A stretch of DNA of 64,000 nt from Escherichia phage a48, in the sequence record OQ067375.1; one strand, given 5' to 3'. Below are positions 2,932 through 41,030 of the stretch, one piece after another (the stretch's first letter is position 1; every line of letters starts with the position of its first letter). A program made the position numbers and the translations under genes. The notes under the pieces were generated by a model that was not told the origin of the DNA, made no database searches, and worked only from the letters and a program-made list of their open reading frames with translations.

Positions 2932-3179
2932 TCCTTCTCTCTGATGATAATTACCTGATTTGGCTGTGCAGACTTTTTGGTTTCACCCGCAATTGACCAA
3001 ATAAATGTAATAAACCAACCAATAATTGACCAGTTAAACAGTAAAGACGTGAAAAAGATTCCTACTGCCGATTTTGACCCACGCATTAAGGCGATGAACC
3101 ATGGAAGCATGTATATAATAATAGCCAACACGCCTGAAACTAAAACCATAAAAATTGAACCTGCTACTAAAGTTTCCAT
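2928..3179 (-). CDS. imm: superinfection immunity membrane protein Imm
   Basis: 83-aa ORF with two hydrophobic helices, directly downstream of 42 and before 43 as in T4. Confidence 0.85.
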   Translation of the reverse strand: METLVAGSIFMVLVSGVLAIIIYMLPWFIALMRGSKSAVGIFFTSLLFNWSIIGWFITFIWSIAGETKKSAQPNQVIIIREKE

Positions 3180-3186
3180 CTTTTCC

Positions 3187-3567
3187 TCACTTAGTCAAAT
3201 TTTTTACGCATGAATTATAAGAATTCACTACATACTCCATCGGAGCATTTTTACCAGTACGCCATTGGTAATTATTAGCCCAATTTGCCCAAAGTTCAGC
3301 GCAGTAGTTTTCAATTTTTTCTTCGCGTGTAATTACATCCGAATTACGATATGCTTGAGCAGATTCATCTGGACGAATAGCCTCGTCAAAATTCGCCTGC
3401 ATTTGTTCTACTGTCTGTTTTGGAGCTTCTTTATAACACTTGACGTTAGGATTATAAAATTTGCTTGAACAGTTTACAATTTTTCCTACATCAGACTGAT
3501 TTACTACCGGTCCTTGAGCTACACAACCAGTAAGACCTAATGCAATAACCAAAATAGCAATTTTCAT
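3187..3567 (-). CDS. predicted lipoprotein
   Basis: 126-aa ORF with signal peptide and lipobox MKIAILVIALGLTGC. Confidence 0.55.
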   Translation of the reverse strand: MKIAILVIALGLTGCVAQGPVVNQSDVGKIVNCSSKFYNPNVKCYKEAPKQTVEQMQANFDEAIRPDESAQAYRNSDVITREEKIENYCAELWANWANNYQWRTGKNAPMEYVVNSYNSCVKNLTK

Positions 3568-3577
3568 AATAATTTCC

Positions 3578-3826
3578 TCAAATACAAGTAGTAATTACTC
3601 CAGTAGTGCTTACACAGGTATTACCTAATTGAACACCCAGTGTTCCATTAGTATTCATATGAAGATTATCATCAATTTTTGTTGATACTTTACCATTCAT
3701 GTGAATAACAGTATTAGATTCAATCACATTCTGAGTATCATTTTCAATATCAATAAATGGAACAGCTGCTAATGCAACTAAACACACTGCTAAGCAACCA
3801 TAAACAATTTTCATTTTATTCTCCAA
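3578..3826 (-). CDS. small secreted protein
   Basis: 82-aa ORF MENKMKIVYGCLAVCLVALAAVPF with signal peptide; preceded by an early promoter-leader cassette. Confidence 0.5.
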   Translation of the reverse strand: MENKMKIVYGCLAVCLVALAAVPFIDIENDTQNVIESNTVIHMNGKVSTKIDDNLHMNTNGTLGVQLGNTCVSTTGVITTCI

Positions 3827-3846
3827 ATCCGTATTAGTTGATAGTT

Positions 3847-3878
3847 GTATAGTACCACAGAGGAACAGTCTTGTAAAC
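3847..3878 (-). promoter_or_regulatory. T4-type early promoter
   Basis: Minus sense GTTTACA, 17-bp spacer, TGgTACTAT; drives ORF 3578..3826. Confidence 0.55.
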
Positions 3879-3960
3879 AGTTTTGTGAAAAATTTTTAGG
3901 GAATTCTAAAGGTCCAGAATCATCTGTTTTTCATAAGTATAGATTTATATTATTTGTATG

Positions 3961-3981
3961 AAAAAGGGACCCGGAGGTCCC
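3961..3981 (-). terminator. rho-independent terminator after gene 43
   Basis: Minus-sense hairpin GGGACC-UCCG-GGUCCC followed by UUUUU. Confidence 0.6.
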
Positions 3982-3994
3982 TAGATTTATTCTA

Positions 3995-6691
3995 TCAGCC
4001 AAACAGGAAGTCTAACGAAGCTTTTTCTTCATAGTCCATACCAGCCGATTCACACATGCCCGCAAGCGGTTTAACAAACGATTTTTGGAACAAAGTTGAG
4101 TAGTCAATCCAAGATAGTACATCAGAACGAATTTCTTTTGGAAGTTCTGTGCCCGACGGCCAAGCAATGCACTTGTCACCAAATGGATTTCCTTCACGTA
4201 ATGGAAGAACCATTACCTTATTTCCATCCAAAATTGGAGCTACACCTAAACCACTAACAGCTCGACGATAAGTTAGCACACCACGGATATGGAACGGGCA
4301 TTTAAATCCTGGCCAACCTTTATCATCATATTTCGCTATATCGTTCGCAGTTTTTACTTCAGCAATAACTTTATAGTCAAGTTGACGATATTCTTTCTCG
4401 AAGTTCTTGTAATATTCTTGGACAGACTCTTCACCTTCCTGAAGAATACGACGAATACTTTCTTCAAGAGCTTCTTGTACTGCTTTTGGTGTTGAACTCT
4501 GCTGAGTTTCCATACCCATGATTTTTAGATGCGGTTCAGCAAATCGCTTATCTTCCATATCATAAACGTTCAGAGCATAACGTTTTTTCGCTTTCCAAAA
4601 TCCACCAACACCCTTTGAACCAAGTGGAGGACAAGAAATAGCTTCACGGTCCATATGCATCAGATGCTCGCGGTTATTCATATAATCACATAACTCACGA
4701 TATGCAACATCAATCATAGGTTCCATCTTTTTCTTACCGAACTGATTCATGAATTCAACTAAATCGTTCTGCTCTTTGAATCGGTCAAGACCAACTTTTT
4801 CAATAACTTTATCTACACAAACATATACCGAATCAGTATCACCTGCTGCGATGAAATCTTCACCATTAGTTCCGCATACTTTATTCAGATATTCATTAAT
4901 TTTACGAGCAATCCACTGAATACCAACTTGGCCGAAAATTGTGATAGCAGTAGCATTTCGCAAATCATAGTAACGGAAATGAATATTACCAAGAGCGCCA
5001 TAAAGACTGTTAATGAGAATTTTACGGTTCAGCTGATTTGTATTAGCAAGTGTAGCAGCTTTTTCACATTCTTCAATCAGACTATTGAGAACAGATTCAG
5101 TATAATTCGATAGTTCATTTAAGAAATCATCACTGAACTTAACATATCGTTCAACTTCTGGTTTAGTTGAACAAGACCCTGCGCCTTTCATAATAATCTT
5201 TTTAATAGCTTCGGCATTCATTTCTTCAGCGAACATTTTCTTTTTCCAGTCTTTACGCTGGAAAAATACTTTAGCGATTTCCTTTGGAATGATACCTTCT
5301 TGATGCTTATCATACATCCATCCATTCGGAGAACAAGAATATTCTTCACTTGGCTTAGGAGCTGTTCCTGCGATATATTCATGAATTGGATGAACTTTAA
5401 ATTGCCCACGAATAGTCTCAGGACTAATGTTAACCTGACGAATAATGCTCGGATACAGAGACGTCAAGTCAAAACTCATAATATATCGACGAGCAATTGG
5501 TTTAGGTTCAAATACAAATGCACCCGGAAAACTTTGTTTAACGTGCGAACCTTGTTGAGGAATAACCTTGTGTTCACCTTTCAATGAGTTAAAAATAATA
5601 GCATCCCAAGTTTTAATAGGACTCATTACACCAGAAAAAGGCATTTTGGCGTAATAAGACATACTTAAAACTAGATCGATAAACCCACGAATTTTATCAA
5701 TTGCTTGAACTGATTCTACGTCAATGATGTTATAACTAATGTATCGTTGATGATTAGTCTCACGAAGTTTATTAATAGGACCGTCGTATGGTAATTTACC
5801 TTTTTTGGTTTCATGTTGAGCAACTGATTCCAAAGAGAATGACGGCAAATTAGTAAATGCGAATTTCTTATACAAATCTAAATAATCAAGAATAGATACG
5901 CCATCAATAGAATAAATTTCTTTGCTACCGTACATATTTTGGATAAGTTTAGATTTTACTCGACCGATTGGAGAGAAACGTTTCATACTGCGTTCACCGA
6001 GAACCATTTTAACGCGATTCATGATATACGGAACGTCAAATCCCTCAATATTCCAACCAGTAAAAATAGCAGGTCGTTTCTGTTCCCAAAGATTGATATA
6101 TTCCATGAGCATATCGCGCTCATTATCGAATGGCATATAAATTACTCGGTCAAGAATTTCTTGAGGAACTTCATCACCACCTTCACAGTCAAGCTTAGCA
6201 GCTAACTTTGCATCCCATTTTGATACTGAACCGTACATTGAATTCAAAAGGTCGAAAACATAAAAACGATCATCAATTGAATCGTAATGAGTGATAGCAT
6301 CAATTTCATATTCAGCTTTCATTGGGTCAGGAAATTTATCACCAGTAACCTCAATGTCACAGTTAGCTACACGAACAAATTTTCGGTCATAAACAATTTC
6401 TGAACCATATGTATCACTGATATAAGCGAGTTTAAAATCGTTCATACCGAGAGCTTCGAGACCGATGTCTTCCATTCGTTTCATCCAATCTCGAGCATCT
6501 TTCATTGATAGAAATTTTTGAGGAGCGCAGTTTTTACCATAGATGTCTTTGTACTTTGACTCTTCCTTACAATGCCTAAACATAGTTGGAAGATATTCTA
6601 CTTCACGAGTACGTTCCTTTCCGTTTTCATCAATATAACGTTCAACAATGTTATTTCCGACTGTTTCAATAGAGATATAAAATTCTTTCAT
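3995..6691 (-). CDS. 43: DNA polymerase (family B) with 3'-5' exonuclease
   Basis: 898-aa ORF, same length as T4 gp43; polymerase motifs SLYPSII and YGDTDS present. Confidence 0.97.
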   Translation of the reverse strand: MKEFYISIETVGNNIVERYIDENGKERTREVEYLPTMFRHCKEESKYKDIYGKNCAPQKFLSMKDARDWMKRMEDIGLEALGMNDFKLAYISDTYGSEIVYDRKFVRVANCDIEVTGDKFPDPMKAEYEIDAITHYDSIDDRFYVFDLLNSMYGSVSKWDAKLAAKLDCEGGDEVPQEILDRVIYMPFDNERDMLMEYINLWEQKRPAIFTGWNIEGFDVPYIMNRVKMVLGERSMKRFSPIGRVKSKLIQNMYGSKEIYSIDGVSILDYLDLYKKFAFTNLPSFSLESVAQHETKKGKLPYDGPINKLRETNHQRYISYNIIDVESVQAIDKIRGFIDLVLSMSYYAKMPFSGVMSPIKTWDAIIFNSLKGEHKVIPQQGSHVKQSFPGAFVFEPKPIARRYIMSFDLTSLYPSIIRQVNISPETIRGQFKVHPIHEYIAGTAPKPSEEYSCSPNGWMYDKHQEGIIPKEIAKVFFQRKDWKKKMFAEEMNAEAIKKIIMKGAGSCSTKPEVERYVKFSDDFLNELSNYTESVLNSLIEECEKAATLANTNQLNRKILINSLYGALGNIHFRYYDLRNATAITIFGQVGIQWIARKINEYLNKVCGTNGEDFIAAGDTDSVYVCVDKVIEKVGLDRFKEQNDLVEFMNQFGKKKMEPMIDVAYRELCDYMNNREHLMHMDREAISCPPLGSKGVGGFWKAKKRYALNVYDMEDKRFAEPHLKIMGMETQQSSTPKAVQEALEESIRRILQEGEESVQEYYKNFEKEYRQLDYKVIAEVKTANDIAKYDDKGWPGFKCPFHIRGVLTYRRAVSGLGVAPILDGNKVMVLPLREGNPFGDKCIAWPSGTELPKEIRSDVLSWIDYSTLFQKSFVKPLAGMCESAGMDYEEKASLDFLFG

Positions 6692-6750
6692 AGATATTCC
6701 TTAGTTTATAGCCCGAGTTATTAGGCTCTTGATATATTATACTCCAAATA

Positions 6751-6766
6751 AGGGGCCGAAGCCCCT
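6751..6766 (-). other. intercistronic UUCG-tetraloop hairpin (upstream of gene 43)
   Basis: Plus aggggc-cgaa-gcccct; minus-strand mRNA carries C(UUCG)G. Confidence 0.6.
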
Positions 6767-6769
6767 TGC

Positions 6770-6991
6770 TTAAATTAGTACTATTTGCCGGGTGAAAATT
6801 ATCATTCCATCTGCATTAATTGACTTAACGACTGCAGTAAAATGTTTTTGTTCTGGGTGAACTAATTTTTGAAATTCTACCTGAAATTTTAATTGGAGGT
6901 TTTCTGGTAAATCAAAAAGTGTTTCTGTTGCAGAAAGATTATATTTTTCTTTAAGAGACGCCATGTATTCTTGTGGAGTTATAGCAGTCAT
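6770..6991 (-). CDS. hypothetical protein between regA and 43
   Basis: 73-aa ORF from the ATG placed directly after the regA stop (MTAITPQEYMASLKEK...); ORF track gives a longer 87-aa version starting inside regA. Confidence 0.35.
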   Translation of the reverse strand: MTAITPQEYMASLKEKYNLSATETLFDLPENLQLKFQVEFQKLVHPEQKHFTAVVKSINADGMIIFTRQIVLI

Positions 6992-6992
6992 A

Positions 6993-7361
6993 TTAATTAC
7001 CAATCGTATATTTAGGAACGAGTTTCCATTCATGTTTTTGTTTAAAAGAAATAACTCGGAAGTTATTAGTTAAATCTTTCATAAAAGTTCTTTGACCAGG
7101 AACGATTTCAATCAGCCCCCAATCTTCTAACAGCCATGCAATCGAATCACGACGAACTTCATCTTCTTCTGTCATTTCAACTTGACGGCCATCCATACGA
7201 AGCATTTCTTTAAAATGAACGATATAGTATAGTCCTTTTTTCTGAAGAATATGACAGGACTGATACAGAACTTTATCTTTATTATTAGCAATTCCCATAC
7301 GAGTCAAAGTTTCTTTTACTTTCAGAAAATCTTCAGGTTTTTTAAGAGTAATTTCAATCAT
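6993..7361 (-). CDS. regA: translational repressor RegA
   Basis: 122-aa ORF MIEITLKKPEDFLKVKETLTRMG..., length and position as T4 RegA. Confidence 0.9.
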   Translation of the reverse strand: MIEITLKKPEDFLKVKETLTRMGIANNKDKVLYQSCHILQKKGLYYIVHFKEMLRMDGRQVEMTEEDEVRRDSIAWLLEDWGLIEIVPGQRTFMKDLTNNFRVISFKQKHEWKLVPKYTIGN

Positions 7362-8887: not shown

Positions 8888-8921
8888 AATTTCCTCATTC
8901 AAGTTTTAGTGTAAATTATAA

Positions 8922-8935
8922 AGGGCCGAAGCCCT
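8922..8935 (-). other. intercistronic UUCG-tetraloop hairpin (between 45 and 44)
   Basis: Plus agggc-cgaa-gccct. Confidence 0.6.
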
Positions 8936-8938
8936 CTA

Positions 8939-9625
8939 TTAAAAATCATGGGTAGAATCAGCTTCAAGAGCTACTACATAATTCGCATGTTCACCTTCAA
9001 ATTTAGCAGCGCCTTGTTTACCTTTTGCCCAAAGCAGAAGTTTATAATTTCCTGGTTGCATTTTCATATTTGCCATATTGATAATGAAATTAAATGTGTT
9101 TTCACCATCATAATCACCAAGAGTCAAAGAATATTTAACACGAGTCAAAGCAGAATCTTCTACTTTATTAAAACCGTTAATTACGATTTTACCTTCTTTT
9201 ACTGTGATAGCAATTGTATCAATCTGCAGACCGCGAGATACACGCAACAGCTGTTGAAGGTCTTCAGCTTTAATTTCGGTAACAACAGATGCTACCGGGA
9301 ATGGAATTGGTTTATTAGGAGCAACTACTGTACTCGGATCGGCTGCTGGCCAAAAAATTGTTGAACGGGCATCAGCAATTTTAATATTTCCATCTTCTGA
9401 CTGGGAAATTTCTGCATCATCATTAACTAGAGACAGAATACCGAGAAAACCGTTCAAATCGTAAATTGCTACATCAAAATCAATAGTGTCAGAAATATTT
9501 GCTTCCGCGTAAGTTGTACCATTAACTGCGCGAGTCATAATAAATTGACCGGATTTAAGCATAATACCAGAGTTAATAGTAGCGAAATTTTTGAGCAGAG
9601 CAGTAGTATCTTTAGACAGTTTCAT
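8939..9625 (-). CDS. 45: sliding clamp
   Basis: 228-aa ORF, same length and position as T4 gp45. Confidence 0.95.
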   Translation of the reverse strand: MKLSKDTTALLKNFATINSGIMLKSGQFIMTRAVNGTTYAEANISDTIDFDVAIYDLNGFLGILSLVNDDAEISQSEDGNIKIADARSTIFWPAADPSTVVAPNKPIPFPVASVVTEIKAEDLQQLLRVSRGLQIDTIAITVKEGKIVINGFNKVEDSALTRVKYSLTLGDYDGENTFNFIINMANMKMQPGNYKLLLWAKGKQGAAKFEGEHANYVVALEADSTHDF

Positions 9626-9680
9626 GTAATTTCCTTCAATTCAAATGAGATTTAATTTTATAACTAATTTAATAAAGCAA

Positions 9681-10070
9681 TTAACGATTAAAATCAGCCG
9701 CAATTGTTTCCGCAACAATTTGAGCAGCAACAATTAGACGTTCATCTGCATTACCGCAATAATCATCTTCAAGACGTTCACCACATGAAGTCATAATAAA
9801 TTTAGCACCGGCGTTTAGGGATTCTGTAGTATGTTTGCGCATTAGTTCAATCCATTTATTACTTACTTCACGATCGATAGCTTCATAATACGCATGACGA
9901 GCAGGTGCAGATTTAATTTTGTTCTGAATAACTTCCATTGCGTTATCAGAAAGAGACAAAACCCATGCTCGACGAATTTTATTTTGGTTTTGTGGATTTG
10001 ATTCAGAACGCACGTGTTTTGGCTGAATATCTTTTACATCAACAGTATAATTCACAGTAATTTTAGTCAT
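9681..10070 (-). CDS. rpbA: RNA polymerase-binding protein RpbA
   Basis: 129-aa ORF between 45 and 46, as T4 rpbA. Confidence 0.7.
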
Positions 10071-13647: not shown

Positions 13648-14848
13648 ATTTTGTAATAATGTCAAACTGTTCTTTAAAGCAGAAGCTTGAATCTTGATGC
13701 TGATACAAAAATTCATATGCTTTTTCTCGCTCACGGTCATAAAGAGCTCGATCAGATGACAATTCTTTAATACGTTCAAATGTTGATTCCATGTCATTTT
13801 CATCAAACCAAATGATACCGCTATCATGCGAGGTCAAAGGAGTATTATCAACGCGGAATTTCAAATTATCACCCGTTGATTTCCAAAATACCGGAATTGT
13901 TCCACATGCACCAAGCTCGAGATGAGTATATTCTAAAGAACGCTGTAGATATTTTTTATCCAACTTACTCAACTGATAACCAAATCCGGATTTACTCATA
14001 CGCTCAAGCATTTCGCTATTTACATAACGGTCAAGAATTTGCGTTGGCAAATTAGGAGCAATTTTAATTTGGTCTACTTGATGAAGACGATAATACTCAT
14101 ATGGAATTCCTTTTTCTTTAATAGGAATGAACGCTGGAGAACGTTCCAGACCTTCCATAATAGTACTTAGTCCTGCAGGTTTAAGATGTTTTTCATGAAA
14201 ATCAAACATCTGATAAAAACCTTTCCATGTAGTCGTACGACCAATCCAGCGGTTGATATTCATGTTAATTTCAGAAACATCTTTCCAGTAGGTTGACCGA
14301 ACCCTCGCAATATCCATAGGAGGCTGAAAGTTGTATACGGTCGGTGCTTCTTCAATATCATCAAACAGAGAAACAGTTTCTGGATACCATTCTTTCATCA
14401 GAACTTTATTAAAATCACCATTATCAGAATGACTAAAAATAACATCAGCTCGACGAACAGTTTCTTCTAATCCCAAATTTCGACGCAAAGAAAGAGAAGA
14501 ATGGTCATGTTGATAAACTACAACACGAACAGAAGGTTTAATGTTATCAATAATTTTTTTATAGTTATTAATAGTGTCTTCTTCAACTGAAGTAGCAGGA
14601 ACTGAATTGATAATTAGAATATCACAATCATTTACCAGCTTAAGTGTTTTATCGTATTCTTTTGCCAATAAAACCGGAATTGAAAATGATTTATAATCAT
14701 GCGCGCAATTACGAGTAAATGATTTATCTTTAGCATAAACCAAAGTTACTTCATGACCATTTTTAATAAACCAATCACGTTGCTCAAGAGAAAATTTAGT
14801 TACACCACAACCTTCAAGACCTCGAGCCATAAAAATACATACTTTCAT
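13646..14848 (-). CDS. a-gt: DNA alpha-glucosyltransferase
   Basis: 400-aa ORF MKVCIFMARGLEGCGVTKFSLEQRDWFIKNGHEVTLVYAKDKSF..., near-identical to T4 alpha-gt. Confidence 0.95.
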   Translation of the reverse strand: MKVCIFMARGLEGCGVTKFSLEQRDWFIKNGHEVTLVYAKDKSFTRNCAHDYKSFSIPVLLAKEYDKTLKLVNDCDILIINSVPATSVEEDTINNYKKIIDNIKPSVRVVVYQHDHSSLSLRRNLGLEETVRRADVIFSHSDNGDFNKVLMKEWYPETVSLFDDIEEAPTVYNFQPPMDIARVRSTYWKDVSEINMNINRWIGRTTTWKGFYQMFDFHEKHLKPAGLSTIMEGLERSPAFIPIKEKGIPYEYYRLHQVDQIKIAPNLPTQILDRYVNSEMLERMSKSGFGYQLSKLDKKYLQRSLEYTHLELGACGTIPVFWKSTGDNLKFRVDNTPLTSHDSGIIWFDENDMESTFERIKELSSDRALYDREREKAYEFLYQHQDSSFCFKEQFDIITK

Positions 14849-14898
14849 TTAATATCCTCATTGTTTTGGTTTATTTTACCAAAAATTTATAAAGCAAT

Positions 14899-16969: not shown

Positions 16970-17007
16970 ACATTATCCTCAATTACGTTAAAATTTTATT
17001 ATCCAAA

Positions 17008-17023
17008 AAGGGCCGAAGCCCTT
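17008..17023 (-). other. intercistronic UUCG-tetraloop hairpin
   Basis: Plus aagggc-cgaa-gccctt. Confidence 0.6.
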
Positions 17024-17222
17024 AGCTAAACTTTTTGGCACCCTTCCAGCCTTCATACATCATTGCGGCTGATATTAATATTGCTCCTGAGCAACTTGAA
17101 TATTTGTGATTCCAAAACCAGTTCAGAAAAACTTCGTCATCAATACCTTGGGCTATCATATTTTCAAAGAACTGACGACGAGCTTCGGCAATTCGCTGCG
17201 ATAATTTAGATTCAGGATTCAT
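17022..17222 (-). CDS. hypothetical protein
   Basis: 66-aa ORF following a UUCG hairpin. Confidence 0.4.
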   Translation of the reverse strand: MNPESKLSQRIAEARRQFFENMIAQGIDDEVFLNWFWNHKYSSCSGAILISAAMMYEGWKGAKKFS

Positions 17223-17860: not shown

Positions 17861-17890
17861 ATAATACCACAGTTTGAGCTCGTTGTAAAC
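17861..17890 (-). promoter_or_regulatory. T4-type early promoter
   Basis: Minus sense GTTTAC ... TGgTATTAT upstream of ORF 17648..17830. Confidence 0.5.
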
Positions 17891-17988
17891 AACTTTGTGA
17901 AAAATATTTTAGGGAATGATAAGAAAGGAACGATAGCTTAGAATGGTAATATACAGAATGTGAGAAAGAAAGGCCCAGAGGGCCCGTC

Positions 17989-19101: not shown

Positions 19102-20915
19102 TGGTGTTTAACCCTATGCATGATTTCTTTATTTTTACCGAGATTAAATCCGCGTTCGTTCGGATTTCCCAAATAACCACATGTTCTTCTTATGGTATTC
19201 ATCTTTTTAGGATCAGTTTCTCCACAAATAGAACAAACAAATCCGTTTTCAGTAGGAGTCATTTCATGAGTACTTCCGCATGTAAAACATTTATCTACTG
19301 GCATGTTAACGCCAAAATAATCTAAATGTTGTGCAGCATAATCCCATACGGCCTCAAGACCTTTTAAGTTATTTTTCATATCAGGAAGTTCAACATAAGA
19401 AATGTGACCACCTGTCGCAATGAAATGATATGGTGCTTCGCGGGAAATCTTTTCAAACGGAGTAATATTTTCTTCTACTGAAACATGGAAACTGTTAGTG
19501 TACCAACCTTTATCGGTAACATCTTTTACACTTCCATATTTTTCTGTATCGAGTTTACAGAAGCGATAACAAAGGTTTTCAGCAGGAGTAGAATATAAAC
19601 TAAAAGCGAATCCGGTTCTTTCAGTCCACTGTTTAAGATGAGCATTCATTTTAGTTAAAATTTCTCGTCCAATATCACGACCGACAAGAATATTCAATTC
19701 GTGAATACCAATGTATCCCAAAGACACTGAACTTCTACCGTTTTTAAATAACTCAATTATGTCGTCATCAGGTTTAAGACGAACCCCGAATGCACCTTCT
19801 TGGTAAAGAATAGGAGCAACAGTAGCTTTAACTCCTTTTAAGGAACTAATTCTACACATCAAAGCTTCAAAACACAAATCCATTCGTTCATTGAATAATT
19901 CAACAAATTTCTGTTCATTGAACTGTGTTCCAATATAAGAATCTAACGCGATGCGAGGAAGATTCAGTGTTACAACACCAAGATTATTACGTCCATCAAG
20001 AATTTCATTACCAGTCGAATCTTTCCATACGCTCAAGAAACTACGGCAACCCATTGGAGAAACAGGAACAGATGAACCAGTGATAGCTTTATTGTTCTTA
20101 GCTGAAATAATATCAGGATACATCCTTTTGCTTGCACACTCTAGAGCAAGCTGCTTAATATCATAGTTCGGATCGTCTTTATAAAGATTAACACCTTCTT
20201 CAACGAACATAACAAGCTTAGGGAAAATAGGAGTTATCCCATCACGACCAAGACCTTTAATACGATTTTTCAGAATTGCTTTCTGAATCATTCGTTCAGT
20301 CCAGTCAGTTCCCGTACCAAATGTAATTGTTACAAAAGGCGTTTGTCCGTTTGAACTAAAGAGAGTATTTACTTCATATTCATAAGCTTGGAATGCATCG
20401 TATACGTCTTTTTCTGTTTTAGATTGAGCATAATTTAACGCATCAGCGATTTGCCATTTTTCTGCATCCTCAATATGTTTTGCATAGGTGCGTTTAACAT
20501 AAGGAGAAAGTACTTTATCTACATTAGCAAAAGTCGTTCCGCCGTATTGGTGAGAAGCAACCTGTGCAGTAATTTGTGCCATAATTGCAGTAGCAACGCC
20601 AATTGATTTAGGAGTTTCAATCTGCGCATTACCTAGCTTAAATCCGTTCTCAAGCATTCCTTTTAAATCTACTAAACAGCAATTAGTAAATGGAAGAGCA
20701 GGGGAATAATCAATATCGTGGAAATGGATAATTCCGCTTTCATGCGCTTTCATAATAAAAGACGGGACCATATTTTTGGCAATGTGTTTAGACACAATAC
20801 CAGCCATAAGGTCCCGTTGAGTTGGAAAAACACGAGAATCTTTATTAGCATTCTCGTTTAAAAGGTCTTTATTAGTTTTATGAATCAATCCTTCAATTTC
20901 TTTTTCAATTGTCAT
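19098..20915 (-). CDS. nrdD: anaerobic ribonucleotide reductase (glycyl radical enzyme), uninterrupted
   Basis: 605-aa contiguous ORF with C-terminal glycyl-radical motif RTCGYLGN and CxxC zinc site. Confidence 0.95.
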   Translation of the reverse strand: MTIEKEIEGLIHKTNKDLLNENANKDSRVFPTQRDLMAGIVSKHIAKNMVPSFIMKAHESGIIHFHDIDYSPALPFTNCCLVDLKGMLENGFKLGNAQIETPKSIGVATAIMAQITAQVASHQYGGTTFANVDKVLSPYVKRTYAKHIEDAEKWQIADALNYAQSKTEKDVYDAFQAYEYEVNTLFSSNGQTPFVTITFGTGTDWTERMIQKAILKNRIKGLGRDGITPIFPKLVMFVEEGVNLYKDDPNYDIKQLALECASKRMYPDIISAKNNKAITGSSVPVSPMGCRSFLSVWKDSTGNEILDGRNNLGVVTLNLPRIALDSYIGTQFNEQKFVELFNERMDLCFEALMCRISSLKGVKATVAPILYQEGAFGVRLKPDDDIIELFKNGRSSVSLGYIGIHELNILVGRDIGREILTKMNAHLKQWTERTGFAFSLYSTPAENLCYRFCKLDTEKYGSVKDVTDKGWYTNSFHVSVEENITPFEKISREAPYHFIATGGHISYVELPDMKNNLKGLEAVWDYAAQHLDYFGVNMPVDKCFTCGSTHEMTPTENGFVCSICGETDPKKMNTIRRTCGYLGNPNERGFNLGKNKEIMHRVKHQ

Positions 20916-21385: not shown

Positions 21386-21425
21386 AATAAAACCCTTACC
21401 TTAAATAGATAAGGGTATTTATTAT

Positions 21426-21602
21426 TTAAGTATTGTAAAACATTCGATGCAATCGTTTATACTGTCGAATCATCTTTTTAGTAGGACGAGAATAGGTTCC
21501 TACGCAAGTGGTCATATGAGGGTCCGTAGAATGTCCTTTAATAAAAAGTTTCCAAACCTTACCGCCATTTAACTTTTCAGTATAAACCAATTCGGTTTTC
21601 AT
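21426..21602 (-). CDS. small chimeric ORF carrying a duplicated pin-like C-terminus
   Basis: 58-aa ORF MKTELVYTEKLNGG...MIRQYKRLHRMFYNT; last ~16 codons encoded by a near-exact copy of the 3' end of the upstream gene. Confidence 0.4.
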   Translation of the reverse strand: MKTELVYTEKLNGGKVWKLFIKGHSTDPHMTTCVGTYSRPTKKMIRQYKRLHRMFYNT

Positions 21603-21638
21603 TAAAATGTCCTGTCAGAAAAAGAATTTTGAGTTTTT

Positions 21639-22124
21639 TCAAGTATTGTAAAACATTTGATGCAATCGCTTATATTGCCGAATCATTTGGTCAGAAAAAG
21701 AAATTTGAGTTTCAAGCCATTCAATGTACTCTGCGGCAGCTTGCATTAAATTTCCTTCATAACCATCGTTATTTTCTTGTGCAGCTAATTTAGCTAATGC
21801 GTATGAAATACGTTCACCCTGAAATCCAGCTTTAGGTTTATGAATAACTTGATCAACTCGTTCTACGACCTCTTCAATTTCGCCATTTTCTACTGATTCA
21901 GTATTCCACAAGCACCAATACGTAATTGGCTTATCGTAGATGTTAATAATCTTTCCATCAGAAAGTTCAATTTCAATAATTCCAGTATCAGGTTCTATAT
22001 CATCTTCGCATTCTTTTGCAAGTTCACGAACTTTAAAGACAGTACCTGCACTAAGTTCCGGCCAGTAATTACACAGCCCTTTATCAGCACGATTAATTCT
22101 AAACCACTTATCTACTGCAATCAT
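21639..22124 (-). CDS. hypothetical protein at the T4 pin position (possible protease inhibitor Pin)
   Basis: 161 aa from internal start MIAVDKWF (ORF track gives 167 aa); identity inferred from position only. Confidence 0.5.
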   Translation of the reverse strand: MIAVDKWFRINRADKGLCNYWPELSAGTVFKVRELAKECEDDIEPDTGIIEIELSDGKIINIYDKPITYWCLWNTESVENGEIEEVVERVDQVIHKPKAGFQGERISYALAKLAAQENNDGYEGNLMQAAAEYIEWLETQISFSDQMIRQYKRLHQMFYNT

Positions 22125-22568: not shown

Positions 22569-22578
22569 TTTTCACCAA

Positions 22579-22749
22579 TTAATTTCGCAATTTATTAAGT
22601 TCTTCATCATCAATCCAGGATTCTAGTCCTGATGGCAGGTCACATTCAATTTCCCAAAGAAGTTCTTCAATTTTCTGAAGACGATCTAGTTCTTCGGCTG
22701 GAATAGTAACCATTGACGAAGCTCGTGATACATTAATATCGTAAATCAT
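22579..22749 (-). CDS. hypothetical small protein
   Basis: 56-aa ORF MIYDINVSRASSMVTIPAEELDRL... translated by hand; below the ORF-track cutoff. Confidence 0.35.
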   Translation of the reverse strand: MIYDINVSRASSMVTIPAEELDRLQKIEELLWEIECDLPSGLESWIDDEELNKLRN

Positions 22750-22751
22750 AT

Positions 22752-22967
22752 TTACCCCAATTTAACCATACAATCGCCGTATTTCCACTTAGAAATAGAC
22801 TTTTCACCATTAGAATAATAAACTTCGAGTTTAGCACGATTATTTTTAATTTGAATAACCTTGGCTGTCATCAAAGTTCCATACCCATAATAAACTGCAA
22901 CTTCATCACCTACATATACCGCGCTTCCGCGGTAATCATGAATATAGTCAGTTCCTTCGAGCATCAT
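22752..22967 (-). CDS. hypothetical protein
   Basis: 71-aa ORF directly downstream of nrdC. Confidence 0.45.
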   Translation of the reverse strand: MMLEGTDYIHDYRGSAVYVGDEVAVYYGYGTLMTAKVIQIKNNRAKLEVYYSNGEKSISKWKYGDCMVKLG

Positions 22968-28182: not shown

Positions 28183-28710
28183 TTATGCGAGTACCGTCTT
28201 TAACCGTTCTTCAAACTTCCGAAGAGTATTCTGGCGTTCAGCTCTTTGCTTTTTGTAAGTTTCAATACGCTCTGAAATGAGAGTGTATCGTTCATTTACT
28301 GATTCTTTCATAAAATCAGGAATTTCACGAGAAGCTTTAATCTCATCAAATTTATCAATAACAGCTTGCTCTTCAGCAATTAAGTTATCATACATTAAAA
28401 TATCTTTCTTGATAAACTCAATATCTTCTTGAGTTACACGAGATAATTTAGATGCTTTATCCTTTTTGTACTGTTCGTTAGTATCACGAGACCAGTGTAA
28501 TGTACGATTTTTATTCGTATTCTTGTAAATTTCTACAATACCGATCTCATCGATAATAACGATCCAATTCCAACGGGATTTGTAAATTTGTCCTCCGTCA
28601 ACTGTGATTTCACCTCCGATTGAGATGTCATTAAAGAACTTACTTTGTGCTTCAGATTTAAATTTACCATCGTTGTAATTTACCAAGTTGAAAATATCTT
28701 TAGCGTTCAT
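28183..28710 (-). CDS. hypothetical protein with C-terminal helical tail
   Basis: 175-aa ORF downstream of an early promoter-leader cassette. Confidence 0.55.
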   Translation of the reverse strand: MNAKDIFNLVNYNDGKFKSEAQSKFFNDISIGGEITVDGGQIYKSRWNWIVIIDEIGIVEIYKNTNKNRTLHWSRDTNEQYKKDKASKLSRVTQEDIEFIKKDILMYDNLIAEEQAVIDKFDEIKASREIPDFMKESVNERYTLISERIETYKKQRAERQNTLRKFEERLKTVLA

Positions 28711-28735
28711 TTTCTGTTCCTCCGTAGTTGATAGT

Positions 28736-28768
28736 TGTATAGTACCACAGAGGAACAGTCTTGTAAAC
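28736..28768 (-). promoter_or_regulatory. T4-type early promoter (repeated cassette)
   Basis: Same gtatagtaccacagaggaacagtcttgtaaac block as at 3847; drives ORF 28183..28710. Confidence 0.55.
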
Positions 28769-28770
28769 CA

Positions 28771-30155: not shown

Positions 30156-30175
30156 ATCCGTATCAGTTGATAGTT

Positions 30176-30207
30176 GTATAGTACCATAAAGCTTTATGCT
30201 TGTAAAC
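30176..30207 (-). promoter_or_regulatory. T4-type early promoter (repeated cassette)
   Basis: gtatagtacc ... gtaaac block; drives the P-loop ATPase gene. Confidence 0.55.
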
Positions 30208-30237
30208 AGTTTTGTGAAAAATTTTTGAAATAAAAAA

Positions 30238-30255
30238 GGGAGCCCGAAGGCTCCC
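30238..30255 (-). other. intercistronic UUCG-tetraloop hairpin (after the nucleotidyltransferase-fold gene)
   Basis: Plus gggagcc-cgaa-ggctccc preceded by an A-run (U-run on the transcript). Confidence 0.6.
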
Positions 30256-30257
30256 TA

Positions 30258-31271: not shown

Positions 31272-31729
31272 TCAGCCTTATATTCAATAACAGGACACAC
31301 TTTAGCTTTACGAGCTTTTAAAAATTCAACGATAATCGATTTCTTAGGTTGAATAGGAGGTAAACCTTTATACGCCCTATCAATATTTTCTACGTGTAAA
31401 GCATAATCCTTTTTCCATTTATAATCTTTATATTTTTCACGCAAATGTGCAGGAATAACAAATGAACCGATAATAAGTAAAACAACCAAAAGCGCAAGTA
31501 TAAATGCTGATGGAAGCAAAGTCCATAAACTACCAAAAATAAGCCAACGCTGTAGGCTTTCTGCACAAATAATTGTTAGCCCTACGAGTATAGCACATCC
31601 AAAAATAGAAACGAAAAATGTAGGAATGGCAATAGACCAAAAATATGCGCATAGTGTCTTAGGTCGTTGCCATTCATCGTTAAACAATTTGAATAATTTA
31701 TAGTGCCAAGAGTTTTCATTAATAATCAT
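31268..31729 (-). CDS. integral membrane protein
   Basis: 153-aa ORF with about three hydrophobic helices. Confidence 0.5.
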   Translation of the reverse strand: MIINENSWHYKLFKLFNDEWQRPKTLCAYFWSIAIPTFFVSIFGCAILVGLTIICAESLQRWLIFGSLWTLLPSAFILALLVVLLIIGSFVIPAHLREKYKDYKWKKDYALHVENIDRAYKGLPPIQPKKSIIVEFLKARKAKVCPVIEYKAE

Positions 31730-31731
31730 AA

Positions 31732-32253
31732 TTATCCTTTCATTGAAGGCGTAACGGTTGTTAAATACTTAATCATAGCTTCAGCTTCTGATTTTGATAA
31801 TGAAATTTCTTCATTGTTTTGACGAATAGAAATAAAATCCGGATGACGGTCACCACCAGCTTTTAAAACACACATATAAGTATCAGTTTCATCTTCAATA
31901 TCTGAAATGATTGAAGCAGTTCCACATGAATGTGGTTTTTGATAAATCAATACAGCTTTTCTTCCACCGTTTGACTGTTCATAAACTTTTAACACATCAA
32001 ACAAATCGCTTCTTTTATCAATAGCTAAGATGTTGTTTTCATCTTCAATATTAAATCCTTCGGATACTTCATAAAGTGTCACCCATAAATCACCAATATC
32101 AATAACAGCGTTCACTTTTCCATGACTTTCAAGAGCATGACAAATTTTCTTGATTTCGTCATAACTCATTTTAATAATATCATCTCCTTGAATAAGAAAG
32201 ATGTCATTTTTAAATTCAACACGAATTAAACCACTTCCACTTGAAATAAACAT
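31732..32253 (-). CDS. hypothetical protein (paralog pair member)
   Basis: 173-aa ORF; shares GFNIE(D/S)E and C-terminal EAxAxxxYLxxVxPxM motifs with 32260..32817. Confidence 0.55.
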   Translation of the reverse strand: MFISSGSGLIRVEFKNDIFLIQGDDIIKMSYDEIKKICHALESHGKVNAVIDIGDLWVTLYEVSEGFNIEDENNILAIDKRSDLFDVLKVYEQSNGGRKAVLIYQKPHSCGTASIISDIEDETDTYMCVLKAGGDRHPDFISIRQNNEEISLSKSEAEAMIKYLTTVTPSMKG

Positions 32254-32817: not shown

Positions 32818-32951
32818 AATTACATACTCCTTTGAATAATATCAATAATGTTGTTCACCAGATTATAAGTAAACATTGGGTAATTATATTGAATCATCAC
32901 ATACACAACAAACAAAACTTTCATTCTCTTCTCCTTGGCAATTGACAAGAT

Positions 32952-32982
32952 TACTATACCATAACCTTGCCAACTTGTAAAC
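32952..32982 (-). promoter_or_regulatory. T4-type early promoter
   Basis: Minus sense GTTTAC ... TGgTATAGT upstream of ORF 32260..32817. Confidence 0.45.
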
Positions 32983-33715: not shown

Positions 33716-33731
33716 GATGTTCTCCTCTTTA

Positions 33732-33764
33732 TCCGATAGTTGTATAGTACCACAGCTCAAACGG
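33732..33764 (-). promoter_or_regulatory. T4-type early promoter (repeated cassette)
   Basis: gtatagtacc ... gtaaac block upstream of ORF 33527..33715. Confidence 0.5.
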
Positions 33765-33788
33765 AAAGTAAACCGGTAAAATGAAAAA

Positions 33789-33806
33789 AGTCTCCCGAAG
33801 GAGACT
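33789..33806 (-). other. intercistronic UUCG-tetraloop hairpin (downstream of rI.-1-like gene)
   Basis: Plus agtctcc-cgaa-ggagact preceded by an A-run. Confidence 0.6.
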
Positions 33807-34754: not shown

Positions 34755-35336
34755 CTAACCGAGCTTTTTAGTTAATTCATTCCAATGTTTTCTACACAAA
34801 GAAACATAAATTTCATCACCAATACAGATTTGATTACCTTCTTTAACTGGTGTTCCATCTTCCATTAATCGAGCTGTCATAATCGCTTTTTTGCCGCAAT
34901 GACAAACTGCCTTTAGTTCAATAAGTTTATCTGCAATCGCTAAAAGTTCTTTAGAACCTTCAAACAATTTTCCAGCGAAATCAGTCCTTAATCCATAAGC
35001 CATAACAGGAACATTATATGTATCAACAATTCGACTTAATTGATGCACCTGTTCAGTTTTTAAAAACTGAGCTTCATCTACAAATACGCAATGAATATCT
35101 TTTTGTGCTTCAGCCCATTTATAGAACTCGAAAATATCCATATCATCTGTAATAATATTCGCTTCCTGCTTAATTCCAATGCGAGAAACGACTTCACAGA
35201 CAGAATCGCGAGTATCAATAGCAGGCTTAAGAACTAATACACTCATTCCACGTTCTTTATAATTATGTGCAGCAGTCAAAAGAGAAGCAGATTTTCCAGC
35301 ATTCATTGCTGCATAAGTAAAAATTAAACTCGCCAT
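34755..35336 (-). CDS. tk: thymidine kinase
   Basis: 193-aa ORF MASLIFTYAAMNAGKSASLL with P-loop and C-terminal zinc cysteines. Confidence 0.93.
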   Translation of the reverse strand: MASLIFTYAAMNAGKSASLLTAAHNYKERGMSVLVLKPAIDTRDSVCEVVSRIGIKQEANIITDDMDIFEFYKWAEAQKDIHCVFVDEAQFLKTEQVHQLSRIVDTYNVPVMAYGLRTDFAGKLFEGSKELLAIADKLIELKAVCHCGKKAIMTARLMEDGTPVKEGNQICIGDEIYVSLCRKHWNELTKKLG

Positions 35337-35345
35337 ATCACCTTC

Positions 35346-35531
35346 TTAAAGCGTATTCACATAAGCTATTAATTCGTTTTCTTTCTTATCAAACCGATCA
35401 GCAAATTCTTCTTGCTGATCGGGAGATAGCGGGCCATATTCATCATAAAAGGTGTTTGCTTCTGTATGCTCATCTAGAAGTTCATGGATAAGCTCAAACA
35501 ATTTATCTTTTTGTTCTTTACTCAGACTCAT
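35346..35531 (-). CDS. hypothetical acidic protein (tk.1-like)
   Basis: 61-aa ORF. Confidence 0.5.
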   Translation of the reverse strand: MSLSKEQKDKLFELIHELLDEHTEANTFYDEYGPLSPDQQEEFADRFDKKENELIAYVNTL

Positions 35532-35701
35532 ATATTAATTTCCAGGAGTTTTAAAATAATTCGCTTTTGCTTAAATATTTCCATAGTTAAATGACCAGTA
35601 TCTTTTTGACCGATTCCAATGGCAAAACCTTTATTGACAGCGAGTTCAATTAAATTATCAAGCTCACGTAACACTTCATATTGTAACTCAAAACTATTCA
35701 T
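35528..35701 (-). CDS. hypothetical small protein
   Basis: 57-aa ORF MNSFELQYEVLRELDNLIELAVNKG... translated by hand; stop overlaps the next ATG (ATATGA). Confidence 0.35.
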   Translation of the reverse strand: MNSFELQYEVLRELDNLIELAVNKGFAIGIGQKDTGHLTMEIFKQKRIILKLLEINI

Positions 35702-35925
35702 TTTGGTTTACCTTCTTTAACGAAATCGGGATAAGGATAAAATCCTGAATAAAATCCTTCACCTTTATGATTGATGCATCCTTTATTAGAACAATAGCAC
35801 CAATAATCGAAATCACAAGCCATTTCATCATTACATAAAGCAAAAACAACAGGCCATTTACACTTTTCACAATGTGCATTTTTAAGAATACTAGTTTGGC
35901 TCATAACCATGTAACCTTTAAGCAA
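35698..35925 (-). CDS. cysteine-rich small protein
   Basis: 75-aa ORF with CEKC...CNDEMACDFDYWCYCSNKGC. Confidence 0.4.
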   Translation of the reverse strand: MLKGYMVMSQTSILKNAHCEKCKWPVVFALCNDEMACDFDYWCYCSNKGCINHKGEGFYSGFYPYPDFVKEGKPK

Positions 35926-37447: not shown

Positions 37448-37909
37448 TCATTGAGTTTTAATTACTGCTTTAGAAGCCTTTCCTGGTAAACGACGACTGT
37501 TAATAATTGCCATTCTACATTGAAGTGACGGGTCTTTGAACTTCTCATTAGGTTTACAAACTGTAAATCCAAGCCAAAGATTTCCATCTGTGATTTCTAA
37601 ACGTCCAGGACGATATTCAACCCCATCAATAAAATCCTCATCGATGTCAGGACGCGGAGGCATACTCAGGAATTCATTAACTTCTAAAACATGGTCTTTT
37701 ATTTTGTGGAATAATTCAAAAACATATGTCTCATCAATCTCCCGTTGAATTGCACGATCAAGAAGATGCTGAGAATATTTTAGATGAAACGATGAGACTC
37801 CTGCTGCTTTTGATGCCTCACGAATCTCATTGTTAATTTGACGAAACTCCGACTCAAAGTGACGACGAAGCTTATTTCGACGGATAAAAACTTCAGTGTT
37901 GATAGTCAT
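37448..37909 (-). CDS. regB: endoribonuclease RegB
   Basis: 153-aa ORF, length and position as T4 RegB; canonical early promoter directly upstream. Confidence 0.9.
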   Translation of the reverse strand: MTINTEVFIRRNKLRRHFESEFRQINNEIREASKAAGVSSFHLKYSQHLLDRAIQREIDETYVFELFHKIKDHVLEVNEFLSMPPRPDIDEDFIDGVEYRPGRLEITDGNLWLGFTVCKPNEKFKDPSLQCRMAIINSRRLPGKASKAVIKTQ

Positions 37910-37938
37910 GTTATTCTCCTCTTAACTGATAGAAAAAT

Positions 37939-37966
37939 TATACCACAGTCAAGAGGAAAAGTAAAC
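37939..37966 (-). promoter_or_regulatory. T4-type early promoter for regB
   Basis: Minus sense GTTTAC, spacer, TGgTATAAT (perfect extended -10) upstream of the regB ATG. Confidence 0.65.
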
Positions 37967-40010: not shown

Positions 40011-40115
40011 TTCTGTATTTACCCATTACCGCACTTGGGCTCGACCTTATTACAGGTTGGCGGGAATCCCTCATAGAATCATGAGGTCCAGCTTGTTCCC
40101 ATATTTCTTATTTGC

Positions 40116-40589
40116 TTATTTGAATGATTTGACGTACTGAATAGAGCCTTTGCTATTCACGAAAGCGATTTTACCATTTTTATTATACATGGTAGCAGTA
40201 CGCTGATAACCATAAGTTTGTTTACCAGATTGATAACCAACTAATGCAAAATTATCTTCGCCCATTTTATTCTGTTTGGCGCGGATACGTTCATGACCGT
40301 GTGCCATAAGAACCTTAGCGTCGCCAGTTGCAATGGATCTACGAGTTTTTTCATCTTCAACCGTATTAACAAAGTCGTCAAATGAATCAAATTTAGCATG
40401 AGATTTATTATACAGTTTTCCATCTACTGCATAATTATATCCCTGTACATCCATCTCAACTTCTGTACCATCATCCAATACAGCAGTGATTTTTTGACCT
40501 TTTTTAAATTTCAAAAGATCAGTAAAAGATTCAGCGATAATTTGAGAATTAATAGCTGCTTCAGTAATAAATTCTTGATATGTTTTCAT
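40116..40589 (-). CDS. internal-protein-like protein with capsid targeting sequence
   Basis: 157-aa ORF starting MKTYQEFITEA (T4 internal-protein targeting signal with protease site after TE); late promoter motif upstream. Confidence 0.6.
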   Translation of the reverse strand: MKTYQEFITEAAINSQIIAESFTDLLKFKKGQKITAVLDDGTEVEMDVQGYNYAVDGKLYNKSHAKFDSFDDFVNTVEDEKTRRSIATGDAKVLMAHGHERIRAKQNKMGEDNFALVGYQSGKQTYGYQRTATMYNKNGKIAFVNSKGSIQYVKSFK

Positions 40590-40598
40590 GTGTTTCCT

Positions 40599-41015
40599 TT
40601 AAATGTAAATATTTTTGCCGTAGTATTTATACCAGTGTGGCTTCATTAAAATTTTTTCATCGAGTCGTTGTTGACTCAATTTAATAGCCGATTTGCATGG
40701 GTTATAATCATTTTTCCATTCTGCTGGAATATCGCTGATGTCAGGAACTTCAGTATCTTTTATACTAAACCCGCGTTTTAAGCATTCCGTTATAATGTCT
40801 GATTGACGCTTTCGCAAAAATTCTAACTTATCATAAAAGAACGTAACATGACCAGAACCTAAAATAAACTCGGAAGATATTTTAAAATCTTTAACCCGCT
40901 TACCATTTGCCACATGTTTACGAACTATACCAAAAACACGTGGCAATTCACGGTATTCTGCGATTAAATGTTGATCAACAAGTTCAGATACTAAAGTCAA
41001 ATTAATACGAGTCAT
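40599..41015 (-). CDS. denV: endonuclease V (pyrimidine-dimer glycosylase)
   Basis: 138-aa [15 protein letters not shown]...[11 protein letters not shown], matches T4 DenV. Confidence 0.93.
40624..40631 (-). promoter_or_regulatory. late promoter (TATAAATA) for the internal-protein-like gene
   Basis: Plus-strand tatttata, i.e. TATAAATA on the minus strand, ~35 nt upstream of the ATG at 40589. Confidence 0.5.
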
Positions 41016-41030
41016 TTTATCCCTCCAAGT

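Follow-up and report, generated by a model that had tools for sequence, protein, structure and literature searches.

The 64,000-nt stretch of Escherichia phage a48 that we analyzed (OQ067375.1; hereafter the window) carries short dispersed repeats in front of early genes, and these repeats are very probably immediate-early promoters with their 5' leaders that have been copied and exchanged by recombination, the T-even form of the promoter-early stem-loop (PeSL) cassette. Each cassette comprises an A/T-rich UP element followed by GTTTAC(A) as the -35, 17 bp of spacer, the -10 TACTAT with its TGn extension, a start region that is conserved (ACAACTATCAAC or TACCCTATCAAAAC), and then the Shine-Dalgarno sequence (SD) and the ATG of the gene behind it. 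Judging from the sequence and from established T4 biology, host sigma-70 RNA polymerase would fire the cassettes in the first minutes of infection. Similarity within a subfamily in parts outside the promoter consensus would come from ectopic homologous recombination or gene conversion, by which sequence was copied from one dispersed site to another, and the same homology patches would act as cross-over points at which genes are gained, lost or replaced while the expression signal is kept. The footprints of recombination can be read directly, and from them and the promoter motifs we infer the recombination process and the transcription starts. Both the recurrence of such cassettes and gene swapping at them are already published, for PeSL elements (Arbiol et al., 2010; Comeau et al., 2014) and for internal-protein (IP) loci (Repoila et al., 1994), and one of the two repeat subfamilies described below, type 2, corresponds to the long-known IP1 locus.

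The window comes from a T4-like myovirus of the genus Tequatrovirus. Many T4-like phages of Escherichia, Shigella and Yersinia match positions 3000-6000, which hold gene 43 (DNA polymerase) and imm, at 97-98% identity, and positions 27000-50000 are 95-96% identical to many other phages, in matches that are always broken into several pieces. T4 itself (AF158101) is collinear from 25.5 to 89.3 kb with window positions 2052-64000, at 90-98% identity and with about 13 indels or replacements between the two. As in T4, the minus strand carries the genes from position 1 to about 52.6 kb, and the repeats therefore read as reverse complements.

The first-pass annotation had placed repeat copies at eight sites and had read each, on the minus strand, as a canonical T4 early promoter. 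All eight copies were found, at the coordinates proposed or within a few bases of them, and every one consists of GTTTAC, 15 nt, TGn and TAnnnT. The pattern GTTTAC-N15-TGn-TAnnnT matches 13 sites in the 64 kb, all on the minus strand, where shuffles that preserve dinucleotides predict 0.04. With the first T of TTTAC giving each its number, the promoters are P3877, P17889, P25802, P28767, P30206, P32981, P33772, P37965, P41069, P45100, P48605, P48903 and P49234. A generic sigma-70 consensus scan was uninformative in this AT-rich DNA (88 sites versus 79 expected), and only the T4-specific pattern was significant. Each of the 13 stands 25-45 nt upstream of the SD and ATG of an early gene in the same orientation, and 22-43 nt separate the -10 from the ATG. 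Orthologues in T4 lie at about 27.1, 53.9, 55.4, 58.8, 70.7, 73.5 and 73.9 kb, which we take to be listed early promoters of that phage.

When all 13 promoters were aligned, only the -35, the TG and three -10 positions were invariant, so any additional identity is a property of subfamilies rather than of the class. The eight copies of the first-pass annotation form two such subfamilies. The 18-mer core of type 1, TGGTACTATACAACTATC, occurs in five exact copies (3840-3857, 28730-28747, 30169-30186, 33735-33752 and 45063-45080) versus 0.00 expected, and the type-2 core, (T/A)GTGATACTATTACC, in three (48573-48587, 48871-48885 and 49202-49216) versus 0.12 expected. A block upstream, GTAAACNNTTTTGTGAAAAA in the plus-strand reading, matches six times versus 0.44 expected; this search added a related copy at 17885-17904 that was missing from the earlier annotation and belongs to the early promoter P17889 (17861-17918, minus strand), where the block common to both types reads TTTTTCACAAAGTTGTTTAC. 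Over 80 nt in fixed register, type-1 pairs were 60-78% identical and the type-2 pair P48903/P49234 79%, whereas the five generic early promoters reached only about 36-50% among themselves and to the subfamilies. The cited copies are thus more alike (60-79%) than other T4 early promoters. Exact common tracts spanned 18-44 nt and were longest between P3877 and P28767 (44 nt), P48903 and P49234 (33 nt), and P3877 and P30206 (28 nt). The expectation that identity would continue through the leader into the start codon was confirmed for P3877 and P30206, which have ACGGATTTGGAGAATAAAATGAAAA in common, and for the two internal-protein genes, which have the capsid-targeting leader codons MKT(Y/F)(Q/K)EF in common. 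Three copies are partial and share only the core from -35 to +10 (28726-28770, 33727-33766 and 48570-48606), in keeping with the shorter ranges that the first-pass annotation gave for them. AAAA/TTTTT blocks stand upstream of the -35 in type-1 and type-2 copies and are less clear in P28767 and in the generic promoter P25802 (25774-25803, minus strand). Directly upstream of the A/T-rich UP block, P3877, P45100 and P17889 also carry the motif (GA)ATTCCCTAAAA (minus strand, 3899-3912, 45122-45135 and 17906-17917), and the likeness of the cassettes thus reaches about -50.

All eight cassettes lie on the minus strand and extend through the leader to the ATG of the next gene. Type-1 cassette P3877 (3812-3897) contains an A/T-rich UP element, the -35 GTTTAC at 3873-3878, TGg with the -10 TACTAT at 3849-3854, the leader, the SD GGAG and the ATG of orf78 (3812-3814). 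This 78-aa gene (3578-3814, phrog_4189), with a signal-peptide-like N-terminus, sits between P3877 and imm.1, and an intrinsic terminator made of AGGGACCTCCGGGTCCCT and a T-run (3957-3982) lies after gene 43, upstream of P3877. The remaining type-1 cassettes are P28767 (28708-28787, promoter 28739-28768) before nrdC.8; P30206 (30141-30256, promoter 30178-30207), preceded by a terminator at 30237-30256, before nrdC.10; P33772 (33713-33806, promoter 33744-33773), alike in the core only and preceded by a terminator at 33789-33806, before mobD.5; and P45100 (45026-45130, promoter 45072-45101), whose A/T block is duplicated upstream, before e.8. In type 2, P48605 (48546-48634, promoter 48577-48606), again alike in the core only, precedes trna.4, P48903 (48838-48932, promoter 48875-48904) precedes IP81 (48607-48840), and P49234 (49172-49263, promoter 49206-49235) precedes IP85 (48917-49174). 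Within the P30206 spacer, positions 30185-30198 of the minus strand form a perfect 14-nt palindrome, CATAAAGCTTTATG, which is not complementary to the leader and is kept in T4, T2 and IMG/VR relatives. A scan with Rfam gave no family at the cassettes, and nine tRNAs were the sole matches.

The composition of individual cassettes points to exchange between them. P3877 is a mosaic: its spacer is identical at 17/17 positions to that of P28767, and its upstream 30 nt (70%) and its leader (27/28, about 95%) correspond to P30206. Selection for strong promoters might instead drive all copies toward one extended consensus with no recombination at all, and the consensus of T4 early promoters does reach past the -35 and -10, to the UP element, the TGn and further positions (PMC2988021), while the start region CTATCAA(A)AC is also seen at promoters in other genera of T4-like phages. 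However, the spacer is not part of that consensus and agrees at only 6-65% in most pairs, so its complete identity between P3877 and P28767 is not what convergence would give, and neither are the nearly identical leaders of P3877 and P30206. The five generic early promoters of the window do without the subfamily sequences altogether. Moreover, orthologous promoters differ between genomes in blocks that match paralogues, and one T4 promoter is a hybrid of two window promoters (see below). Convergence as the whole explanation is improbable, and we rejected it on the identical non-consensus spacers.

Block-wise differences between genomes are clearest at the imm locus, where the orthologous promoter occurs with five spacers (aagactgttcctctg, aagactgttcttcca, aagaatgttcttcca, atccctgttcttcta and atccccgttcttcca) and three leader variants among the window, T4 and five IMG/VR contigs. 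These spacers are of the nrdC.8 type, of the e.8 type or hybrids, and the leader variants match the nrdC.10 or e.8 leaders. A hybrid promoter is found in T4 before trna.4: an in-silico cross-over of P48903 and P48605 within their common 19-nt core, GTGATACTATTACCCTATC, yields the T4 trna.4 promoter-leader at 91/94 positions, compared with 79/97 for P48605 alone and an alignment over only 58 nt for P48903 alone. T4, with its single IP gene, has the arrangement predicted if P48903 and P48605 recombined and IP81 was lost, and such a predicted deletion is consistent with mini-circle excision.

Junctions and inserts also fall within cassettes. The generic promoter P41069 (41013-41070, minus strand), next to gene e, is kept in T4 but is joined there to ipIII, whereas in the window it drives denV; the junction lies at window position 41026, between the -10 and the SD, that is, in the leader. 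On two related contigs, inserts of two to three genes lie exactly between the nrdC.10 promoter core and the SD. The first (L068) follows the nrdC.10 promoter of the window as far as ...CTATCAA and continues with genes of 49 and 87 aa. After these come another early promoter, of a type widespread in other T4-like genera, a gene of 66 aa, a degenerate third cassette and, last, nrdC.10. The second (L069) has half a cassette, with the terminator joined to the -10, then the two genes of 49 and 87 aa again and, before nrdC.10, a type-2-like promoter; nrdC.10 thus stands behind three types of cassette in different genomes. The L069 contig (IMGVR_UViG_2974787500_000001) also has, at 9202-9921 between nrdC.10 and nrdC.9, a 239-aa ORF that the window does not have; with a GIY-YIG-like N-terminus (MKKYFTIYK...YYYGRH...YVGSG), it probably encodes a free-standing homing endonuclease. 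In T4-like contigs at large, at least 12 different genes, among them imm.1, motA and several small ORFs, follow an identical copy of the 18-nt type-1 core. Altogether, indels or replacements adjoin P3877, P41069, P48605, P48903 and P49234, and in relatives the site of P30206; none was found within the genus beside P28767, P33772 or P45100.

We mapped the genes behind the cassettes onto T4 and searched each coding sequence against 50,697 GenBank phage records, of which about 500-530 are Tequatrovirus, judged from genes like mobD.5 (500 records, all at 95% identity or more). The first-pass annotation had described these genes as mostly small, unrelated and lineage-variable, a description that did not hold up. 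Five of the eight are near-universal in the genus, with matches in 531 records for nrdC.8, 509 for nrdC.10, which encodes a protein of 322 aa, 500 for mobD.5, 527 for e.8 and 512 for trna.4. Only orf78, IP81 and IP85 vary. The first of these, which is followed by imm.1, was matched in 319 records, where it has two alleles, and is absent from T4; IP81 and IP85 were matched in 221 and 251 records. Both IP81 and IP85 are internal virion or head proteins by their PHROG matches (E 1e-52 and 1e-49), starting with MKTYQEF and MKTFKEF. Between 57B and trna.4, the IP1 locus holds one to four IP-like ORFs of 68-127 aa in 36 contigs, and T4 has ipI there instead. A second IP locus, at window positions 40104-41026, is rearranged: where T4 has the order ipIII-ipII-denV, e is followed directly by a diverged denV, 77% identical to that of T4, and then by a single internal virion protein of 157 aa (40116-40589, phrog_3155).

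Several of these observations weigh against a general exchange of genes at the cassettes. Since five of the eight genes behind them keep their position throughout the genus, most cassettes do not flank cargo now. Only about four of the roughly 13 indels relative to T4 have a junction in a cassette (3807, 41026, 48586 and 49140). Another five to six are homing-endonuclease genes or the nrdD intron (the mobB, mobC, I-TevII, mobD, segB and segC regions), and those at 6774-6992, 21473-21636, 22575-22963 and 35336-35900 are remote from early promoters. The orf78 indel itself (246 bp relative to T4) is bounded not by two full cassettes but by a 10-bp repeat, ATGAAAATTG, with copies at 3558-3567, at the imm.1 start codon, and 3805-3814, at the orf78 start codon, the 3' edge of one cassette. 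Finally, an upstream terminator stem-loop, which is part of the PeSL definition, accompanies only four of the 13 promoters: an intrinsic terminator lies within 130 nt upstream of P3877, P17889, P30206 and P33772, a weak AGAA-loop-TTCT stem lies upstream of P28767, and the other eight have no upstream stem. The earlier proposal that cassettes promote the swapping of downstream genes thus stands in part: the mosaics, the hybrid T4 trna.4 promoter and the inserts at cassette edges speak for it, but only three of eight genes vary and most indels lie elsewhere. In the window, gene exchange at cassettes would have occurred mainly at the IP1 locus, the e/denV/IP locus and the imm locus. At the imm locus, orf78 and imm.1 both start with MKI, followed by a hydrophobic, signal-like segment.

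Dispersed, near-identical short repeats, some of them at indel junctions, might also be expected of autonomous mobile elements, miniature transposon-like or homing units moved by an enzyme of their own. Yet no terminal inverted repeats, target-site duplications or associated nuclease were seen at any copy, the copies have a single orientation that matches transcription, and their positions are fixed in about 500 genomes. In addition, the junctions lie inside common homology, as homologous recombination predicts. A transposon-like element, which we rejected because terminal inverted repeats and target-site duplications were lacking, is extremely unlikely.

The cassettes resemble known elements of T4-like phages. 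In RB49 and phi1, PeSL cassettes were defined and their promoter and terminator activity shown, and mini-circles arising from recombination between neighboring copies were detected (Arbiol et al., 2010, PMC2839356). The concept was then extended to nt-1/KVP40 and to T4/PST, where indels adjoin the elements in the T4/PST pair (Comeau, Arbiol and Krisch, 2014, PMC4122927). The published PST/T4 promoter consensus, TTTACW-N17-TAYWAT (PMC4122927), fits all 13 window promoters. Like PeSLs, the window cassettes are intergenic composites in which an AT-rich region and an early promoter are joined to an SD and an ATG, and in some copies a stem-loop terminator lies immediately upstream; both kinds of element cluster among early genes that are not essential, and junctions of indels or replacements fall in some of the copies. 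Unlike PeSLs, most window cassettes precede genes conserved throughout the genus, and at seven window promoters the stem-loop is formed by spacer and leader and encloses the -10, a geometry absent from PMC2839356 and PMC4122927. According to the summaries in these two papers, analogous elements were found at two T-even IP loci (Repoila et al., 1994), based, per PMC2839356, on T4 early promoters with weaker AT-rich stem-loops. As far as these summaries go, the type-2 copies agree with them: they lie in the IP1 locus (57B-trna.4) and flank IP ORFs with a capsid-targeting leader, phages differ in how many and which IP genes they carry, and we see no difference of substance. T4 early promoters as a class combine UP, -35, TGn and -10 elements with additional consensus positions (Hinton, 2010, PMC2988021) and are found before many of the novel ORFs of T4-like genomes (Nolan et al., 2006, PMC1524935). 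The window promoters have the GTTTAC -35, TGn-extended -10, A/T-rich UP element and location before early genes or novel ORFs in common with this class; the difference is that the window subfamilies share spacer, start region and leader beyond its consensus.

We then considered the RNA that each cassette could form, folding every promoter from the -35 to the ATG together with 200 shuffles each. Six promoters form hairpins that no shuffle (0/200) equaled in stability: P28767 (-23.2 kcal/mol, z -6.3), in which the spacer pairs with the SD; P37965, a generic early promoter (37907-37966, minus strand) before regB whose spacer is an anti-SD (-22.4 kcal/mol, z -5.8); P41069 before denV (-18.8 kcal/mol, z -4.5); P48605 (-19.5 kcal/mol, z -4.2); P48903 (-16.8 kcal/mol, z -3.5); and P49234 (-17.4 kcal/mol, z -5.4). 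The generic promoter P32981 (32953-32982, minus strand), whose spacer and leader are complementary, is similar, with a spacer-leader duplex of -14.6 kcal/mol and its own leader ranked 1 of 13. Compared with shuffles, the folds of P3877, P30206, P17889, P33772 and P45100 showed no significant hairpin. On the minus strand, the hairpin regions are 28708-28768, 37907-37966, 41013-41070, 32946-32982, 48546-48606, 48838-48904 and 49172-49235. The 5' arm is the spacer between -35 and -10, at times together with GTTTAC, and would thus lie upstream of the putative +1. For nrdC.8, regB and denV the leader with its SD forms the 3' arm; at the IP promoters this arm consists of the bases just past the -10, with the -10 in the loop and the SD not covered. 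Inverted repeats surround the -10 in P48605 (AGATAGGGTA/TACCCTATCT) and P49234 (TGATGAGGTA/TACCTCATCA) on the minus strand.

Pairing between spacer and leader was specific to each promoter. In seven of 13 promoters the own leader was the best duplex partner of the spacer among all 13 leaders (permutation p < 5e-5), and the mean spacer-leader duplex was -12.8 kcal/mol for cognate versus -8.0 kcal/mol for non-cognate combinations. Among 130 promoters from 36 T4-like loci around 57B, in several genera, the corresponding means were -11.3 and -7.5 kcal/mol, and cognate energies were lower than non-cognate ones in 20/20 related loci, although these related genomes are not independent samples. T4 has hairpins at ipI, ipII, ipIII, denV, regB and trna.4. 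Stem sequences differ wholly from one promoter to the next, and the orthologous promoters of trna.4, e.6 and denV are no exception. A covariation test in fixed register gave a weak signal (47% versus 43% paired) because the 5' arm sits at varying positions in the spacer, i.e. the stems float, and duplex energies of cognate and non-cognate pairs were therefore used instead. The spacer of P3877, which is of the nrdC.8 type, pairs at -23.8 kcal/mol with the nrdC.8 leader but at only -8.0 kcal/mol with its own, a poor match that fits P3877 being a chimera.

These hairpins may add a layer to recombination rather than strictly compete with it: spacer and leader might be conserved jointly through RNA pairing, so that each cassette is a self-insulating unit. 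RNA that reads through from upstream would contain both arms, which would mask the SD or leader, whereas RNA started at the cassette's own promoter would lack the 5' arm and be translated, and the hairpin would replace a terminator. Predicted SD accessibility, taken as the unpaired probability over the 5-nt SD core, rises from 0.00 in read-through RNA to 0.85 in own-start RNA for regB, from 0.00 to 0.51 for denV and from 0.00 to 0.41 for nrdC.8. Hairpins and upstream terminators also occur in an either/or manner. In the window, a hairpin is found at 0/4 promoters preceded by a terminator versus 7/9 of the others (Fisher, C(6,4)/C(13,4) = 0.021), and among 118 unique promoters the mean duplex was -7.0 kcal/mol with a terminator (n = 12) versus -11.8 kcal/mol without (n = 106; Mann-Whitney p = 0.002). 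The same hairpins in T4, cognate pairing across related loci with unrelated stems at the same place, and the analogy of late promoters within hairpins at e, soc, 49 and I-TevI all favor such units. On the other hand, four of the eight copies in the first-pass annotation (P3877, P30206, P33772 and P45100), those that look most shuffled, have no significant hairpin, the stem at the IP promoters brackets the -10 and leaves the SD uncovered, and fixed-register covariation is weak (0.47 versus 0.43), with related genomes that are not independent. We regard the joint conservation of spacer and leader through RNA pairing as a serious possibility, if not the favored one.

Palindromes centered on the -10 could also be operators, at which a dimeric phage repressor would bind the inverted repeats that bracket the -10 and turn early promoters off within minutes; the mechanism of early-promoter shut-off has indeed been described as not completely understood (PMC3014915). 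However, complete divergence of the stems with pairing kept indicates structure rather than a sequence-specific protein site, the 3' arm is often the SD, an RNA-level signal, and about half of the promoters have no palindrome. A repressor operator, rejected on the lack of conservation in the stems, is thus very unlikely.

Promoters within hairpins are known to control translation of T4 e, soc, 49, I-TevI/II/III and segB and of Aeh1 mobE (PMC3014915, PMC2988022), and in these reviews the mechanism is given for late or middle promoters only. For nrdC.8, regB and denV we predict the arrangement known from e, soc, 49 and I-TevI, with the SD masked by a helix whose 5' arm is upstream of the start site, so that long transcripts would be masked and promoter-proximal ones open. 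The known cases differ in that late or middle promoters are involved and expression is delayed; here, the promoter is early, the 5' arm is the spacer, and the effect would be to confine translation to the immediate-early burst and to shield the gene from upstream transcription. From our analysis, the most likely role of the hairpins would be to tie translation to the cassette's own promoter, as a translational insulator where there is no transcriptional one, and the folding models make insulation a plausible function. It is doubtful, in our estimate, that T4-like early promoters commonly lie in RNA hairpins as self-insulating units, where the estimate asks both that the design works and that earlier work has not stated it as a general rule. 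Hairpins at early promoters may in part have been noted in older T4 papers; stem-loops before ipII, ipIII, denV and tk were reportedly described by Valerie and colleagues in 1986.

Comparison with T4 showed further differences outside the cassettes. The window lacks the homing-endonuclease genes mobB, mobC, mobD and segC (with 5.3) as well as the nrdD intron with I-TevII that is present in T4; the corresponding sites in the window are 14840-14863, 19101, 20377-20380, 31272-32235 and 55496-55501, and in place of mobD there are two ORFs, one of 153 and one of 173 aa. Between gene 43 and regA, about 220 bp at 6774-6992 are extra relative to T4, with no adjoining early promoter, and an 87-aa ORF of unknown function in this insert (6770-7033, phrog_3826) overlaps the 3' end of regA. 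The interval between gene 49 and pin holds a 52-nt direct repeat (21422-21473 and 21635-21686, 88% identical, 213 bp apart) that encloses an additional 58-aa ORF (21426-21602) and, set against T4, resembles a local duplication. A further insert relative to T4, about 510 bp at 45264-45773, lies upstream of the e.8 promoter; it carries a 153-aa ORF of unknown function (45270-45731, phrog_2280), and a strong terminator (45782-45805) precedes it. Another repeat family consists of near-identical GGGGCCGAAGCCCC stem-loops at four intergenic sites (6750-6776, 8920-8946, 17007-17033 and 43861-43887), which are probably intrinsic terminators with a GNRA-like loop.

For T4-like phages, the cassettes show how a conserved core can be kept while small accessory genes are traded, such as injected internal proteins that counter host defenses or membrane proteins near the superinfection-immunity gene. 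In this established picture, the promoter-leader unit doubles as a homology patch, so that an acquired gene is expressed immediately, and the window provides clean examples of it rather than a new principle. The hairpins, if their proposed role is true, would carry the principle known from a few late promoters (e, soc, 49 and I-TevI) over to about half of the early promoters in several T4-like genera, and their pairing would account for spacer and leader traveling as one cassette. A rule of terminator or hairpin, if real, would tell which early genes are confined to the immediate-early burst, which is testable, and the pattern would represent a design principle for portable, context-independent expression units.

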